From: Antechinus flavipes
Lineage: Eukaryota
DNA length: 64,000 nucleotides
Direction: 5' to 3'
Assembly (NCBI RefSeq): GCF_016432865.1
Contig: NC_067399.1
Span: 216,690,001-216,754,000, forward strand
Positions 4,096 through 44,155 of the stretch are shown here, piece by piece; the stretch's first letter is position 1, and every line of letters begins with the position of its first letter. The position numbers and the translations under genes were made by a program. Below the pieces are notes generated by a model that saw only the letters and a program-made list of their open reading frames with translations, was not told the origin of the DNA and searched no databases.

Positions 4096-5029
4096 AACTT
4101 TCCTATGCATCATCTTGCAAAGCTATAATTTTGTAGCCCGTGCTAGTATTGATCCAAGTCCATTCAGTCCTTCAGGAATTATTTGTTCCTCATAATATCA
4201 TGGAAATATTTTCCATGAACTGAGACAACAGGAACTTTAAAGTGTTTATATTAGCATGATAATAACATTATAAGAGGCATAGTATAAGTAGGGCAGAAAA
4301 TAATTGGATCCAGTAAAGGGAACAAGAAATTCATATCCCCAACTCAAGCTTATTTGGGATGAATGTGACATCCTTTGAATGCCCATTTGTTTAACACAGT
4401 GATTGGCAAATAGTAATTAATAAATACTTCTTGACTGATTGACAATGGAATAATGAATAATCAGTCAATTTAATGATTACTACTATCATTCTCCCAATTC
4501 TCATTACACTAGGGGAATGTATAAACTTTTATGGCCCATGGAAAGCCATCCCCCATTGGAAAAGTGGAAAATATCTTAGCCCCATCCTAGGGGTGTATAC
4601 TGACTTTCAATGAATATTTTGTTCTTTAGGATAACTCTGGATCATCTTTCCAATCCCATCAAATATCATAAACAATAAGCAACAAATGAAATCATGATCT
4701 CTAATAATCACAATGTTTGCTTATTATTTTTATGCTTATTTATGTCCTTACCTCTCTTACTAGAATATAAGTTCTTTACATACGGACATTATTTTGTTCT
4801 TTCAGTTTCTTTTCACAGTGCTTACCACATTGTCTGGCACTTAATAAACTCTTATTAACTGATGACTATAATAATAGCTGTCATTTACATAGTACTTTAA
4901 AATCTATAAAGTATTTGCATACCTAATCACATTTGATCCTTGCTGCAGTTATCCCTTCCACATCACTGGAGTTAAAGGCTTGAAGCCCCTGGATCTGAAA
5001 AATCCATGTAAAAAAATTTTTTTTTTCTT

Positions 5030-5165
5030 TGTGAGACAATTGGGGTTAAGTATCATGTTCAGGGTCACACAGCTATTAAGTGTTAAATATCTAAGGTCAC
5101 ATTTGTATTCTAGTCCTCCTGACTCCATGGATAATGCTTTATCTACTACACCATCTAGTTGCCTA
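5030..5165 (-). mobile_element. WSINE1-like SINE
   Basis: T tail then gagacaattggggttaag...cagggtcacacagcta...tcctcctgactcc...ccatctagttgcc. Confidence 0.8.
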
Positions 5166-20675: not shown

Positions 20676-20686
20676 GGTATAATACA

Positions 20687-20830
20687 GTGGCAGCTAGTTG
20701 GTGTATTGATAGAACTTCAGTCCTGAAGTCAGGAGGACCTGAGTTCAAATCTGACCTCAGACACTTAATACTTCCTAGCTGTGTGACCCCGGGCAAGTCA
20801 CTTAAGCCCAATTGTCTCAGCCAAAAAAAA
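20687..20830 (+). mobile_element. WSINE1-like SINE
   Basis: gcagctagttggtg...cctgaagtcaggaggacctgagttcaaatctgacctcagacacttaa...cccaattgtctcagccaaaaaaaa. Confidence 0.9.
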
Positions 20831-30400: not shown

Positions 30401-31399
30401 AGAATGTTAAAGGTGGTATGGTGTTTAGAGTGTTCAGATATCATTGGTCTAACTTTAATTTTATAAATTATGAAGCATAAGTTAAGGAATGAGAAATGAT
30501 TGATGGAAGGCTATATAGTATCATACAGTAAGCAGAATCAATAGAAAGGTCCAAATCCAAAAGTGCAAAATAGCACATCAAACCTCAATGCCTTAGGAGA
30601 CAGAAACAGATGACTCTCTATGTAGGAGAGCCCTAGATCCTTCCTTTATCTGAGTTATTCTGTGTTGTTTATAAGGATTTTAAATGTGAAAGAACTGGAA
30701 AAGACTTTAGAAGTCACTTATTCAATCCCTAATCCAAATTATTAACAAATATCCCTTCCAGATAATTGAACTACTATAAAGTACCAAGTTCCTCTCAGAT
30801 ACTAGCCTGATCTCACTTTTTTAAAACAGGCCATACATATCTGTTACCATATAATGAAAATATCAGTGACAGATTCAACTGTAAAGAAATTACATGTTTA
30901 GGTACTTTATACAAACCATTCCACACTTATATCAGTTGGAAAAAATCATAAACACCTAGAAGAAGTTGATTAATGAGCTACAAAAGCATGTGCCTTAAAT
31001 GTCCCTCATAATCAATTACTAAACAAGCTACATCAAAACATTGCAAGATTATACTGCAAAACCTTTGACCCCATTGCACATTCATGGTTAATTTGTGTAT
31101 TACAAATATATAAATTAGATGCAGATACACTGAATATATTAGTGTATTTGATATCTACATGGAAAAGTGTACACTGTTTAATAAATGTGGCCAACACAAT
31201 AATGTCAAGAATACTTCAAATAAAATATGACATTTTTCAATAAGTGAGTACAAGTTAGTGCTGTTCTGCCTAGCATTAAATATCCATTGTCAAGGCTCCC
31301 AAAGAGAACTGATTGTAGGGTCCAAATAAAAAATGACAAGAATACCAAACCATCATATAAAGCCTGAATATGTATATGGATAATATTACATAATATGAT

Positions 31400-32450
31400 A
31401 GTACTAGAAAACATATTAAACTGGTTTTTCCTCTCGTGAAAACTTTCTCTAGTGACAGCAAAATGTCACTAAAAAATAAAGCAGTTTCAATATAAACTAA
31501 AGATAAAATGGAGATAGAAATCACAAAACTTGAATTGAGTGGTCACTTTTAATCAACACATAAAGATATCTTTGAATCCTTCAGGAAATACATCAAAACT
31601 ATGAAGGGTAAAGTTGTGATTGTGTGATTTAAATGACATTCTGGGAACTCAATAAAATAATATTCTATTGAACAATTAACACCTGATAAAAATCAGTCTT
31701 AATATTTACTTTTGAAACAATAAAATGAAGAATGAGAAACTTATACTTTATCCATGCAGCACAGAATTCATCATGACAACACAGATAAGGAAAGAAGAAT
31801 ATTTATTCTTCTTAAGGAAGATGATTGAAAAATGTTTTTAAAGAAAATAAGCAGATTAAAAACTTAAAGGACTTATTCTAGAACTTCATAGAACAATAGA
31901 AAATACTAACAGTAGAAACATATCCCTATGTCTATTGAATACAACTGAAAATATGCTTTCATATGGAGCACATATGAAATCAAGATACTATATGAGCAAC
32001 ATACATATAGCCTTCACCAATCTTATGTTGACAAAGAAACATCTAAACATGACAGAGTTATGATATCAATACAAGATTATATATTTCTACTAGAAATTTT
32101 AAAAGATTATCCTGAAGGTCTCAGACTTAGTCATAGACACAAATTATTCCAGAAAATAGTAAAAATAATGGAGTATATCACTAAAAGTTGCAAAAACATA
32201 GTAACTATGCAATTCTTAGGAAGGTGTTGGTAGTAACTAGAATCACAAATCAGACAATCGCTTCTTCCTAAACTAACATTTTTATTAATTTTACAATTTA
32301 GGTATCCTAGAGAATTCAACAAATAAAGTATATTGATACTAGATCATTATAACAGAAAAATCATTTCCCACAAATGATACATAAAAATTTGAGAACAACA
32401 TGTTTAATAGGTAACACCATACTATATACTTATAAACTCTAAACTACGTG
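31400..32450 (+). mobile_element. heavily degraded ancient L1 ORF2 relic
   Basis: APE-like gttgtgattgtgtgatttaaatgac (VIVGDFN-like), catatccctatgtctattga (PISLMNID-like), tatcctagagaattcaac. Confidence 0.45.
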
Positions 32451-33149
32451 GGATATAAAGCCTTCAGAATATAGAAAACTAATAGTATAAATAAGACCAT
32501 GAGAGAACAGGATATAATAAATGACATCTCCATCATCCTGTCTAGAAATAGATTTTCTCCACAAAGATGTTTTCAGTGAGTCTTCAGTAATTCAGCTATA
32601 AAACAACAAAACCCCAACAATCATTTCTTCTATTTGCCCAATGTACTTTAAAATAGTATAGTAGGATAGCAGCTTGTCTTGGGCCTTTTCTATCTGAACA
32701 TGATAAAATGAGATAAGAAGAATAAAATGGTAATATTAGCAACAATCCATTTAATGTTCACGTCAAAATCCACATCTATTGGGAGAGAGAATTTCAATTT
32801 CAATTGCCAGTCAAGATATTATTTATTAGTGACTCTGGGTATTCATAGATCACAGGAATAATAACTATGAAGTCTTTTTAGATTCCTTAAATGCTATTGA
32901 GTTCATTGGTGGTCTCAACAAGGATATTATTCCTATGAATCCAAGAAATAATGGGAATACCACAAGGAGGCAATAGATAGATAGATAGACAGATATGTGT
33001 GTATATATATGTATATATGTTTGTATAGTAAGTTTAAATACACAAAGAAAGAGAAATCTTTCTTAATTTCTAGTAGAAATAATCTAATTTTTCATTGATA
33101 TCATAAACCTGACATGTTTGATGGTGCTAACCTTAAGATAGGCATACCA

Positions 33150-35935
33150 AGAGAAAGCACAAAATGGACTGAAAATTTAGATATTTTCGTCATGTAGCAG
33201 AAATATCTTGTCAGAAAATTGGAAACAGATCTCATTGATTAGTGGGCAAAAATTACATATTGTTTTTTGTCAATGGTATCTTCAACTTCAAGTCACATAA
33301 AAGCATTTTGCTTACCCATTCCAAGAAATTATATCTGTCTTTGCCGGTCTCTCCCTCTCTCTCCCTCTCTCTCCCTCTCCCTTTCTCTCCTTCTCTGCTT
33401 CACCTCTTTCTCTGTCCCCTCTTTTTTCTGTCTGTTATTTTCTCTACTTGTTTAAATTAAAAAAAAAAAAAAGATTAGGAATCAGATTAAAATAAGAAAA
33501 GGGAAAGTTCAAGACAGTGTGGACTTACAAATCTTAATGTAAAAGCAAGAAGTAACAAAAGAAATGACAAAAACATCATTGAGAAGCCATTTTTTTGGGG
33601 GGAAGGGAAGAAAAAGGGAGGAAATACAGAACAATTAGACTTGAATTCTGAAAAATCCACTTTCAGATTGATAGTAGAATGAATGCAGTTTGTAGACCAA
33701 TTAAACCAAAACAGCAATCCATAAATCCCTTCTGCTCTAACCATGATGAATGAATGTATTCTCCCACATTGACATCATATGAAAACACATCAGGACCTAT
33801 AAAATATATATAATATCTCTTTCCATGATAAAATCTAATCAGAGGAACACTAGATATATCAGAAATATCTGGAAAAGCAATTGCCAAAACTTTAGCATAA
33901 GGAATTTGAAAGAGCTATTAAATAGCTATAAAAAGACATTGAAAAATTTTATCAAAATCTACTTGGTAGCTAAAGTACAAAACTTAAATACTATATTGCC
34001 TAATACAAGAATATGGAAAATAAAAACTTAACAGAAATCCTAGATTCCCTTAATCAGCAATGGAGGAAAAATGAAAAGTTTAAGATGTCATAAGAGATTA
34101 ATGAAGCATGAAAAATAAAACAAACTATTATACATCATTGAAATTTTAGGGAAAAAAAATACTGGGGGTGGGGGGGAGTAAAATAAGGAATATGTGGAAT
34201 GTTACTCATCATCTCTATGGTTTTAAGAAGTCCAGCACAAGGAAGCTATAAGTTGGGTAAAAGCAGAGAGAACAAGGACACTGTATTTTAAAAATGGAGG
34301 TAGAACCATTGCATCAAAGATGGCGACTAAAAATCTAGCTTTTTTGTGCAACAATAAAGTAAGGGCTGGATAAAGTCCATAATTATTGGCTTAAGGGCTG
34401 CATAGTGATTCATGAGTTGCTGGCAGAGTCCTTTATCAACTTTTTTTCCCCCCTCAAATGCAAGCCTGATCTTGCCCTTCATAACAGAAGACAGTACTTA
34501 TCTATTACCAAAAGATGAGAACAACAGTGACTTCCTCAATTAAAGGCCAATTAAGCACTTTATTCAAAAAAGTCATAGCTTGTACCATTTTAAAAATAAT
34601 CTATAAACACTTATAGGAAAACAATACATTGACAGAAAAGAAAAATGGGTGTGTCAAAAATTCATAAGAATGAAAAGAGCAACTTATTATTGATTTGGTA
34701 GTTATTGAACATGCTGTCCAAAAGTGCTGTGTGACATTTATACTGCCTTTGTTGATTATCACAGAGCCTTTGACAAAGATTTGTTCTCATAGCTTATTCA
34801 TGTACTGAAAATACATAAAAAATTCTCAAGTATAGGGAAAATTCTTGTATTTATACATCAATTCTGAGTGCCTGAATAAAACTTTTTCAATGAATTATCA
34901 CCTCCTAATAACATTACAATCCCCCTCATAATATCTTTCTTTAATCTGAACAGTGCATAGCCACAACCCTCTTTCAATATGATTTCAGCTTTTAGATGTG
35001 TTTCACCAATTTTCCCCCAAGGATCTTTAAATTCTAATTATCTTGCCAGCCACTTTCTCCTTTTCCTTTTTATATTTAGCTTCTACTCCATAATCCCACT
35101 CAATTGTCCTTAATCCCTTATATTTTCCTTGAAGTTGATATGTTATGCTATTTATTTTACATATTATACTATATACTATTTTATGCCCCTACTATTCCCT
35201 TTATGGAAAATTTGTTTGGTTATCAGAAAATGGAATGGCCTCAAGAAAATGTCTCCAAGCAAAGGGCTGCACAACCATTTATAATGACATCCTGGCTTAA
35301 CAATAATTTATCTTTAAACTTGAAAAATTTGAGATTTCATGATGAAATCAAGGTGTCATATTAGTACTAATGGAAAGTAAATACATAGTGAGATAGATGG
35401 CTCACTCAAAAACATGTTCAGCAGCTTACTCACCTTATAGACTCTTTCTCCATTGAGATCAAATAACATATTTGGAATTATAAGTATAAAATTTTTAATG
35501 GAAGAATGGAATTTAATGGAAAAATTTTAATGGAAGAAAAATATTGATGGATTTTATCCCAAATCTATAGGTCAGGTTGAATGGCTGAAAATAATATTAA
35601 TACCATGATATTTCAGGCAATATTCACTGAGCTAAAGATATCAAAGACAAGGTTATGGATAAATATTTTGAGACATTCTCAAATTGTAGTTGAATGGGAA
35701 AAACACATTTGAGCAACTAATACTAATGCAAAACTACTTTAAAACAACTTCCAGAACTACAAAATGAATCATAAAAAATTTGGAAAGTAGTGTTCCAATT
35801 ACCCATACAGAATTAATAAAGTAGGGCCCACCATTCAAAGACAAATGTGGAAAAAGTAATGCTTTTACACCAAAAAGGAGGATGAGAGTTCATAAGTATA
35901 TGAACATGACAAACAGGTTTAAACCTAGAGAAATA
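33150..35935 (+). mobile_element. R4/Dong-clade non-LTR retrotransposon fossil (Mam_R4-like), N-terminal domain through RT
   Basis: manual translation gives colinear motifs: KWTENLDIFVM*QKYLVRKLETD (33162-33230), TEILDSLNQQ (~34030), VQHKEAISWVKAE (~34230), GLDKVHNYWLKGCIVIHELLAESF (34363-34434), TYLLPKDENNSDFLN*RPI (34496-34552), LTEKKNGCVKNS*E*KEQLIIDLVVI (34629-34706), YTAFVDYHRAFDKDLFS*LIHVLKIHK (34739-34819), GG*EFISI (~35877). Confidence 0.8.
33345..33430 (+). repeat. (CT)-rich simple repeat inside the R4 fossil
   Basis: direct reading. Confidence 0.8.
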
Positions 35936-37990
35936 TTTGTATTTTCCCCAGTTACATATAAAACAGTTTTTCTTTTTTTTAGCTTTCATTTGTTTTTAAA
36001 ACTTTGAGTTCCAGATTCTCTCCCTTCCTCCCTACCCTCATCCCCCTTTAAGAAAAGACATGATGTCATGTAAAATATTCCCATTAAAGTCATATTGTGA
36101 AAGAAAACATAGATTTCCTCCTTACCACAAAAATCAAGAACAACAAAGTAAAAAAAAAAAAATCAGTATGCTTCAATCTGTATTCAGACACAATCAGTTC
36201 TTTTCTGAGTAGCATTTTCATCATAAGTCCTTAAGAGTAGCATTGTTTAGAATAGCAAAATCATTCCCAACTGATCATCCCACAATATTACTATTACTTT
36301 CACAATATGTTTCACTTTGCTTGAGTTCATGGAGCACTTACCAGATTTTTTTTTTCCTGAGAGCATCTTGCTCATCTTTTCCCACAGAACAAAACTATGC
36401 CATCATAATTGTATCACTCCTTAATTTATGGGCATCTCCCAGTTTCCAATTCTTTGCCCTGAAAAGAGTGCTGCTATAAAGATTTTTGTACTTAAAGGTT
36501 TTGTTTCTTTTAAAAAAAATCTCTTTTGAGACTTACGCTTAATAGTGGTATTGTTAGGTCAAAGGATATGCATGATATTGTAGTACTTTGAGCATAGTTC
36601 ATATCTTTTGGTCATTTATGAATTAGGGAGTGGATCTCATTTTTTTAATAATTTGATTCAGTTCCAACTCTCCCTGTGCAGTGGGAGAACTGTTCGGTTC
36701 TGCAAATATGTATTGTATCTAGGATATACTGCTACATATTTAACATATATAGGACTGCTTGCCATCTTGGGGGGGGGGAGGAGGGAGGGAGGGGAAAAAA
36801 CGAAACATAAGTGATTGCAAGGGATAATGCTGTGTAAAAATTATCCTGGCATGGATTCTGTCAATACAAAGTTATTATTAAATAAAATTAAATTAAAAAA
36901 AAAAAAGAGAATAGGAACTATCTTTTTGGATAGAGCATCAGGCTCTATTCTACTCAGGAGACCAAGTCAAATAAAGCTTTAAAACATAAAAAAATAAAAA
37001 AAAATAAAAAAAAATAATTTGATTCAGTTCCCTATACATTTGAGAAATGAAGCCTTCATCAAAAAACTTGCTTCAATGTTCTTTATCCAGTTGCTATCTA
37101 TAGACTCACCTGTTTATTTTATTCTCTCTCTACTATCACCCTAATTAATCCTCCTCAGTTTTGCTACTGACCACCTGCTTCCTCAGCATGCCCTCTTTTT
37201 ATACCCTCACTACTTCCTGTATCCCCTTCCCCTCCTACTTTCTTGTGGGATAAGATAGGTTTCTATACCCATATTGAGTCAATTCTGATGAGAATAAGGT
37301 TCACTCATACACTCTTGCTCTCCCCTTCTTACCCTCCATTGTAAAAGCTTTTCCTTGCCTTTTTTATGGCAGATTATTTATGGCATTCCATCTCTCCATT
37401 TCCCATTCTCCCAGTACATTCCTCTTTCCCTTTTTAATTTTATTTTTTTTAGATATTATCCTTTTATATTCCACTCATACCTGTGCTCTGTCTCTACATA
37501 TACTACTCCTAACCTCCATAATAATGGGGAAGTTTCAATGAATTTCAAGTATCATCCTCCCATGTAGGAATGTAAAAAGATAAACTTTATTAAGTTCCTT
37601 ATGATAGTCTTGATTACCTCCTTATGCTTCTCCTGAGTCCTGTATTTAAAAATCAAATTTTCTATTCAGCTCTTGTCTTTTTATCATGAATGATCGAAAG
37701 CCCTCTATTTCATTGAATTTCCACCACTTCCCCTGGAGGGTTATATTCTGTTTTGCTGGATAGGTTATAATTTTTGGCTGTAATACTAGTTCCATTTCCC
37801 TCTGGAATATCATACTCCAAGCTCACTGATCCTATAAAGTAGAAACTGCTAAATTGTGTGTTATCCTGACTATGGCTCCACTATACTTGAATTATTTCTT
37901 TCTGAATGTTTGAAATATTCTCTTCTTAACCTGAGAATTCTGGAATTTGGCCATAATATTCCTGGGCATTTTCATTTTGGTATATTTTTT
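35935..37990 (-). mobile_element. older L1 (3' UTR plus ORF2 end), host of the young L1 insertion
   Basis: aactttgagttccagattctctccc; gggcatctcccagtttccaattctttgcc; cctctggaatatcatactccaagc. Confidence 0.85.
36666..37012 (+). mobile_element. young 5'-truncated L1 with 3' transduction
   Basis: L1 3' UTR 36666-36894, first A tail 36895-36906, unique 81 nt 36907-36987 with AATAAA at 36970-36975, second A tail 36988-37012; identical TSD aataatttgattcagttcc at 36647-36665 and 37013-37031. Confidence 0.85.
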
Positions 37991-38359
37991 TTCATTTTTG
38001 ATTGTTATCTTTACTAAGTCTCTTCTTCACCAATATCTGATCTTTAACCATTCCTTAGATGACATATTTCCTAAATCTTTCACCATTCTGGTCTTATCCC
38101 TAGTACATATTGTAATGCATAGGTAATAAGTAAACACAAAATAAATGTTGTTATTCTTTAATTCACTCAATTTATCTACTCACTTATGAATATTATATAT
38201 GAACATGCATATATAACATTAAATTAACCTATTATAATATATAAAATATAACTATGTTATAAATATATCTATATATCTATATCATATATTAATATATAAT
38301 ACTCAAAGCAGAGTAAATAAGTATATACAGACACACATAGGCTCAAATATACATATATA

Positions 38360-43160: not shown

Positions 43161-43526
43161 AATATTGACATTCTCTCCCATTCTTACTAAGCTAAATGAT
43201 CTTTATTTTAAGAATGATGTTCCTAAAATGTAATAGAATAGTAACAATTTGGAATGGAAAAGAAAGGATGATGTGAGAATTATTATGAATATATCATTAA
43301 TGAGACCTGTGACTGAATAGATCTATAAGTCATTCAAAAAGAAGAATAAAATATTTTTTCCAAAGTGACAACTGTTAGGAAGAATAGAAATCCCATTAAC
43401 AAGAATATAAATAGGGAGAAATAGAGGAAGGGTTTATCATGATTAAAATTTGGTTTGGGATTCAATAATAATGAGTTCAGATTTAGCCAAAAATGAGTGA
43501 TGTACTGCTTTAAATCTGAGGGAAGA

Positions 43527-43669
43527 GGGGTAGCTACGTGGTGCAGTGAATAGAGTACCAGTCCTGAAGTCAGGAGGACCTGAGTTCAAATGTGGTCTCA
43601 GACACTTAACACTTAGCTGTGTGACCCTGGGCAAATCACTTAACCCCAATTGCCTCGGGGGAAAAAAAA
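43527..43669 (+). mobile_element. WSINE1-like SINE with 17-bp TSD
   Basis: near-consensus SINE body; aaatctgaggg(a/c)agagg at 43512-43528 and 43670-43686 (one mismatch). Confidence 0.9.
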
Positions 43670-44155
43670 AAATCTGAGGGCAGAGGTTCAGTCTTTTCCC
43701 AGGGAATGTGGGAAATGCCTAATACATATTTAGGTGGTATCCATTGCCTGAAAATATGGATGTGGGTGACATCTGCTTAAATGATACACTAAGTGGTAAG
43801 AGTAGATAATATTTCCAGAAGAAAGTAAAGAAGAAAGTAAATGCAAAATCATTAACACCTACAATTAGAGAGGAGGAAAATAAACCTTTATAGAATAAAA
43901 TAAAAAGATAGTCAAGAGAAAATAACATCATAGATGTCAAAGGGAGAGAGACATTAAAGAGAGGCTAGTTAATTTGAAAATGTTGCAATAAGGTCAAGGA
44001 AGATGAAAATTTAGAGAGCACTGAATGGAATTTTTGTTGTATGGTAGGGCTTTGCTGCTAAGTATTCATAGCATTTTTGTACTATTTTAGGAAGAGCTTA
44101 AGAAATTAATTAAGTCATCAAATACAATTTTCTTTTAAGAAGTCTGAAATGTTAG

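Follow-up and report, generated by a model that had tools for sequence, protein, structure and literature searches.

What is the broken, protein-like stretch at about 33150-35935 of a 64,000-nt piece of the Antechinus flavipes genome (the whole piece is called the window here), and how did it come to lie there? A sequence-only reading had taken it for a long fossil of a rare R4/Dong-type retrotransposon, which covers most of a single open reading frame (ORF) and escapes ordinary annotation. All 15 motifs quoted in that reading were recovered by six-frame translation; they lie on the plus strand within 33162-35919, follow one another as listed there and are distributed over three frames. Plain annotation tracks are indeed blind to this copy (copy B): Pfam detected no reverse transcriptase (RT) in the six raw frames, and its sole match was unrelated, on the minus strand, with an E-value of 0.049. 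By contrast, the frameshift-aware search that had been proposed gave 184 bits for 32900-36300 with a profile of 20 intact single-ORF proteins carrying an RT and a restriction-like endonuclease (RLE), compared with 18.6-23.5 bits for eight shuffled, 21.9 bits for reversed and 18.7 bits for reverse-complemented versions of the same DNA. The N-terminal part alone scored 43 bits and the part after 34860 scored 35 bits (nulls, 15-22 bits).

Copy B extends over 33120-35938 on the plus strand (residues ~79-871, K2P 0.323), corresponding to residues ~85-870 of an ORF of ~1,170 residues in the profile alignment. Its 662 aligned codons are broken up by 12 stops and 16 changes of frame, as expected of the dead fossil that had been proposed, and the locus codes for nothing functional at present. 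The claim that most of the ORF is covered, including the N-terminus, holds for the N-terminus but not for residues ~603-684 (the RT core with the YMDD motif) or for anything after ~870 (CCHC zinc knuckle, nuclease and 3' end), all of which are gone. The first half of the RT domain (34181-34842, plus strand) is the best-kept part, with 74% identity to the family majority over 675 nt, while a low-complexity interruption is present at 33312-33446, including a (CT)-rich array at 33348-33413. The quoted motif RCHKRLMKHEK sits within a DNA segment that can be aligned to the family, and its reading frame is presumptive. The proposed 5' limit of 33150 has to be moved, as copy B aligns from 33120 and its 5' end is probably near 32760 (a weak match, E 0.041).

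With regard to its clade, copy B was found to be of R4/Dong type and not L1, the 184 bits obtained with the intact relatives comparing with 18.5 bits for the L1 RT of its own genome, which is noise level (shuffles, 16-23 bits overall and 16-21 bits for L1). Under one scoring scheme, it scored 186 bits with P0002, 162 bits with a weevil protein, 115 bits with a moth protein and 88 bits with P0009, a protein group with one named host, a shrimp. A fossil-only profile, built from 20 in-frame fragments of the window and of genomic copies with stops written as X (five of the 20 contain Pfam RVT_1), had a Sitophilus oryzae protein of 1,139 residues as its top match in 1.84 billion representatives (118 bits), and the solved structures in the PDB that matched it by RT were R2 proteins only, at 18-21 bits. 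The intact relatives are single-ORF proteins of ~1,140-1,200 residues (~1,160-1,190 for those retrieved by the fossil profile) that are colinear with the fossil copies and have RVT_1, a weak zf-RVT match and C-terminal CCHC and PD-D-K motifs; no APE domain was detected by Pfam in any of four intact relatives, and the fossil N-terminus aligns to theirs at up to 61%. The commonest residues over 65 copies of the family spell YMDD, C-C-H-C, RHD, D...D and K..KY (YMDD commonest in 40-44 copies; the nuclease-region residues C, C, H, C; R, H, D; D; D; and K..KY commonest in 29-38), and the P of the PD motif is mostly L, which may be due to CpG decay. R4/Dong elements are described, in the accessible parts of several papers, as elements with an RT and a REL-endonuclease whose insertion sites are rDNA or microsatellites, those of Dong being (TAA)n (PMC7998251, PMC3812793, PMC4640811); a divergent N-terminal Myb/SANT-like domain was reported for the clade via HHpred (PMC7998251), and the legend of an R4/Dong figure in the same paper lists Sitophilus oryzae, with no accession visible. 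The family majority is only 24% identical to the L1 RT, its copies are scattered at TAA repeats on seven contigs and not in rDNA, unlike R2, and RTE, CR1 and L2 are APE-type elements without an RLE, whereas the family has RLE motifs and no APE, an indirect comparison by domain type. Thus, although the RT tree, in which the family groups firmly with insect elements including that of Sitophilus oryzae, is without labelled R4, Dong, Rex6 and Mam_R4 references, and R2 is mentioned in automatic names of relatives, it is scarcely credible that the element should be assigned to a different clade (L1, RTE, CR1/L2, R2 or NeSL/Hero), given an L1 score at noise level, relatives without APE that end in CCHC and a PD-D-K nuclease, R2 proteins that match the weevil relative at only 82-111 bits, and dispersed copies at TAA repeats outside rDNA.

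Copy B is not alone in its genome. When 34330-34900 was searched against the own genome (3.19 Gb), all 40 scored matches out of 119 candidates were positive; apart from the window itself, they represent 39 sites elsewhere with 66-80% identity, which identifies the stretch as an interspersed repeat. The 87 family loci that were aligned are best matches and not a random sample; 10 duplicate or overlapping loci and seven window loci had been left out, and for two loci (L042 and L094) the score refers to the wrong strand. The suggestion that copy B is special or particularly useful for reconstruction did not hold up, since 34 of these 87 loci outscore it, 10 of which span residues from at most 100 to at least 840; nor was copy B among the 40 best listed genome matches of an intact relative (25,268 first-look candidates, 39 scored). 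Near-full-length copies include L081 (G000:C7:58334869-58338693; residues 61-1171, 417 bits), L089 (353 bits) and L017 (342 bits), all with 10-20 stops and better kept than copy B. Nor is the family, which the sequence-only reading called rare in mammals, rare in dasyurids: the RepeatMasker table of Antechinus stuartii, in the part of the paper available, lists 12,719 Dong-R4 pieces covering 4.9 Mb, or 0.15% of the genome (PMC9631953). Copy B is an unexceptional and incomplete representative of a class that had been counted before.

The distance of the family copies to their majority has a K2P median of 0.305 (IQR 0.277-0.334, n=80) in a DNA pile-up, which is preferred to the protein-guided value (K 0.405) because noise in the alignment raises the latter. 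The three codon positions differ at 0.30/0.27/0.32, close to what neutral decay gives, and a K2P of ~0.3 would be compatible with activity before the marsupial-placental split. Several individual loci show further rearrangements. In L047 (82-1324) and L029 (488-578, both in element orientation), two of 81 loci, an inverted 5' part is joined to a forward 3' part; this geometry is that of twin priming known from L1, and the two inversions could also be later micro-inversions. Clusters of at least three family pieces within 3-4 kb occur at L069, L073 and L086, and a 350-residue stop-free stretch of L1 ORF2 RT lies beside the family copy at L015 (1-1050, minus strand).

Besides neutral decay, it has to be considered whether the locus was kept by selection, for example as an exapted exon or regulatory element. 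Words of the locus were found in eight organisms, and copy B together with its single-copy insertion was covered by contigs in three DNA runs. Copy B is common to other species at ~5% difference, the locus itself being seen in close relatives only; a related species has 118 differences in 2,250 letters and frame-breaking indels of 1, 2 and 4 nt in copy B. Human Dong-R4 is often constrained, with 797 constrained elements for 550 pieces according to the accessible text of PMC3428314, and one RNA run has short pieces of copy B; however, these are short contigs of depth 3-10 from a metatranscriptome, which give no evidence of transcription. In addition, the stops and frame changes, a K2P at or above the family median, the differences and indels in the relative and the loss of 213 nt in the own lineage all argue against selection, which is very improbable.

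The way in which copy B arrived is best approached through a second R4/Dong copy (copy A, 30732-32747) immediately upstream, which the sequence-only reading had overlooked. Copy A is a 5'-truncated but 3'-complete fossil on the same strand (30732-32706), comprising residues ~450 to the end of the ORF and ~60 nt of 3' UTR; it scores 193 bits in the frameshift-aware profile alignment with the same 20 proteins (nulls, 19-28 bits), its DNA pieces are 64-76% identical to the family majority, and its K2P is 0.363. It retains a remnant of the RT catalytic motif, YMDN (31373-31384, plus strand; YMDD in the family majority), and a decayed CCHC zinc knuckle and RLE region (32147-32500, plus strand) from which the PD motif has been deleted. 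An A-rich stretch and a degenerate (TAA)n tail follow on the same strand at 32707-32747, with 11 of 15 matches to (TAA)n, just below the cut-off of 12. Right behind this tail is the probable 5' end of copy B (32760-32975, plus strand): the best match in the window to a profile built from 12 family 5' ends is at 32918-32961, a weak match (E 0.041) with the right strand and order, and short colinear blocks of the family 5' end reach back to ~32760. Copies A and B are 71% identical over 163 nt.

Other copies of the family are also flanked by TAA repeats and stacked head-to-tail. In the pile-up, the family ORF end is followed by a short UTR and then by AAT repeats. Using a criterion of at least 12 of 15 matches, (TAA)n was present at 11 of 26 anchored 3' ends (from 44 candidates), compared with 2.3% of random windows (P 7e-10); the anchor used ends before the tail, whereas an earlier anchor had misplaced the ends (2/31, P 0.33). 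Among the 14 copies with enough 5' flank, six could be anchored, and (TAA)n lay just upstream of four of them (background 2.3%, P 0.0013), the other two flanks not being TAA-like. TAA repeats on the 5' side point to the target and not to a tail alone. A second piece within ~1.5 kb was found on the same strand at 14 of 81 loci and on the opposite strand at seven of 81, whereas random placement predicts that 0.6-5% of loci have neighbours, although this excess should be read with caution because the loci are best matches and AT-rich regions gather repeats. Of 11 same-strand pairs tested, 10 are independent copies at 66-77% identity and one is a 100% duplicate; in five tandem pairs the downstream copy begins 32-53 nt behind the upstream 3' UTR. 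It is likely that the family was aimed at TAA repeats and that such stacks arose as would be expected from the TAA targeting of Dong, which in the visible text of PMC7998251 and PMC3812793 targets (TAA)n in insects and molluscs.

Copy B was probably inserted directly in the (TAA)n tail of copy A. Alternatively, A and B might not be two targeted insertions but the products of an ancient duplication in tandem, or might lie side by side by chance in a region rich in repeats, given that the match for the 5' end of copy B is weak, that an inverted 70-nt copy near copy B attests to local rearrangement, and that a recent tandem case of 100% identity is known at L096. This is unlikely, as the divergence between A and B matches that of any two family copies, the two are truncated differently, and neighbours occur at 12 of 81 loci, far more than the 0.6-5% that random placement of 12,719-100,000 pieces would give (P 1e-13 to 4e-4). 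The L096 locus itself (G000:C5:195031419-195034733) has a tandem duplication of ~920 nt, identical over 409 nt, which may be recent or an assembly artefact.

Taken together, copy B is very likely a defunct member, under neutral decay, of a multi-copy family of R4/Dong non-LTR elements, arranged head-to-tail behind a second copy and inserted, probably through target-primed reverse transcription (TPRT), into the (TAA)n tail of that copy. In RLE-LINEs, whose biochemistry is modelled on R2 structures, the nuclease nicks the target and reverse transcription is primed there. By analogy with this biochemistry, the single protein of the family would have bound its own RNA and recognized (TAA)n, its C-terminal nuclease would have nicked the repeat, and reverse transcription would have started at the nick; 5' truncation may have produced copies such as A, and each insertion would leave TAA repeats as fresh targets, giving stacks such as A-B. 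The later history of the locus comprises the expansion of a microsatellite, the inverted duplication of 70 nt, the entry of unrelated DNA, a probable loss of ~213 nt of RT core in the own lineage and the insertion of an L1-like repeat in antisense at the 3' end.

Traces of these later changes are visible along copy B. A (GATA)n/(TA)n microsatellite occupies 32973-33027, followed in the 5' region of copy B by an inverted 70-nt local copy (33055-33123, minus strand, 83% identity) of 32040-32108 of copy A, with a score of 86 for A, compared with 49 for the family majority and no more than 56 for any of 84 other loci. This piece was set in after the insertion of both A and B; it lies ~950 nt from its source and resembles a templated repair insertion. 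Two other readings were dropped, namely twin priming, as the piece is a local copy of A, and a DNA transposon bounded by the 32040/33123 inverted repeat, as its left arm lies within the ORF of A. Further downstream, the RT core has lost ~250 nt, in the place of which there is 540 nt of unrelated, non-R4 DNA (34850-35390); two related species have 213 extra letters at 34845-34850, so that part of the loss would be recent. The segment 34850-35020 has one weak 70% match elsewhere (L106) and may be a rare old repeat. The 3' third of copy B, which is absent from the rest of the window, has been cut off by one or more abundant L1-like repeats in antisense (35940-38100, minus strand), 35940-36700 giving 7,652 candidates and 44 matches. 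Near 37700 there is a weak Pfam match to L1 ORF1 (PF17490, E 0.06); what we take to be an L1 ORF2 C-terminal motif was also recognized in this repeat, a region with no Pfam match. The ORF1 remnant lies ~1.2 kb from the ORF2 C-terminal remnant, which may represent nested insertions or a half-L1-type element. Elsewhere in the window, a SINE-like repeat of ~140 nt occurs at 2056-2194, 5016-5163, 20686-20830 and 43526-43673 (72-85% identity).

As to the origin of the family, horizontal acquisition had been raised as a possible reading, and it stays live, as the relatives around the family are insect elements. A tree of 61 rows places the fossils in a single clade, within a group that also contains the weevil, a fruit fly and four proteins without names (SH-aLRT 99). 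In a 53-row tree, for which the fossils were realigned to a profile excluding the weevil/fruit-fly group, the family is sister to the weevil protein plus P0002 and is also nested with the fruit-fly group, each at 100/98 support. Forcing it outside the insect-side rows was marginally rejected on 27 rows (p-AU 0.047), the exact sister remaining unsettled (p 0.48). The family majority shares 60-62% amino acid identity with the weevil protein over the RT and nuclease regions, which is a floor because the majority has lost all CpG, compared with 46-56% between the weevil and other insects (ladybird 46%, moth 51%), 50% between flies and 69-72% within Lepidoptera; paralogous lineages blur such family-insect comparisons. 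The path from the family to the weevil is ~0.67 changes per site, compared with 0.38-0.52 among moths and butterflies, and would fit a divergence several hundred million years ago and not the insect-vertebrate split.

On the other hand, vertical descent from an old vertebrate Dong/Rex6 lineage, shared by fish, lizards and the amniote ancestor, might produce the same picture if the insect likeness reflects slow evolution, unsampled vertebrates or transfer in the reverse direction. In the accessible portions of the literature, Rex6/Dong is found in most fish and is abundant in anole (PMC4350176), and one Dong-R4 fossil older than amniotes is listed in human (PMC9004415). Moreover, P0002, the nearest protein, and P0015-17 bear no host name and could be from vertebrates, the AU test is marginal, and an atlas contains RT clusters with Chordata as the commonest phylum, a generic record without sequences that does not amount to a test. 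However, every named host of the nearest relatives is an insect, the sister grouping with the weevil plus P0002 and the link to the fruit-fly group persist with a profile excluding them, and the majority is closer to the weevil than the weevil is to ladybird or moth, or one fly to another. In a search with P0009 for vertebrate R4/Rex6 proteins, no vertebrate was present among the 120 matches listed, whose one named host is a shrimp. Vertical descent is thus conceivable though rather doubtful. Horizontal transfer, in whichever direction and at whatever date, is slightly favoured, and the more specific proposal, that mammalian Dong-R4 is an insect-derived, (TAA)n-targeting LINE that moved horizontally into an early mammal or earlier amniote, kept its specificity and left more than 10,000 marsupial pieces and stacks in its own tails, is evenly poised between right and wrong.

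A mammalian LINE with a sequence-specific target would be of interest because its copies and stacks could be used to date and test this specificity, and the near-full-length dasyurid copies could yield an end-to-end description of the family, including the 5' region and tail. If the transfer were true, an old insect-to-mammal case would join the few retrotransposons that mammals acquired horizontally, and if the insect-derived reading were true, the family would be the fossil record of a sequence-specific mammalian LINE and of a Mesozoic insect-mammal transfer. The Dong-R4 class is already known and counted by RepeatMasker; copy A, the TAA flanks and stacking of the family and its insect affinity are new. 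In the literature as far as it was accessible, no paper on TAA targeting, tandem arrays or an insect origin of mammalian Dong-R4 was found, and Dfam/Repbase notes and supplements may hold these; the word "Dong" is absent from the available text of PMC4408412 and PMC7070016 and occurs in that of PMC9650251 and PMC8516420 only as author names.

Among known systems, the family probably equals or overlaps the LINE/Dong-R4 (Mam_R4) class, the named mammalian families of which are Mam_R4 (RepeatMasker/Dfam) and X4_LINE (Repbase) in the accessible parts of PMC9004415 and PMC5753468. Mam_R4, described there as an RLE-bearing human LINE relic (PMC9004415), is likewise old, of R4/Dong clade type and equipped with an RLE nuclease, a comparison by description; human has 550 Dong-R4 pieces covering 120 kb (PMC3428314, in part), and TAA targeting, tandem stacking and insect affinity are not mentioned in the accessible accounts of Mam_R4. 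Dong of Bombyx mori, DongAg, DongBg and ostracod Dong resemble the Antechinus family, as far as the visible text of PMC7998251 and PMC3812793 describes them, in their single ORF with RT followed by CCHC and RLE and in their (TAA)n sites; they are intact or recent, whereas the Antechinus family is long dead, and the likeness is by description only. The nearest named intact proteins are XP_030765588/XP_030754471 of Sitophilus oryzae and CAD7002869 of Ceratitis capitata, which have the same domain order, are 60-62% identical to the family majority over the RT and nuclease regions and are annotated as uncharacterised. R2 (R2Bm and R2Tg, with solved structures) provides the only relatives in the PDB; it is distant (82-111 bits to the weevil protein) and, in the accessible part of PMC7998251, targets 28S rDNA and carries N-terminal zinc fingers, whereas the Antechinus family lies at TAA, yet the chemistry of RLE nicking and TPRT would be expected to be alike in both.
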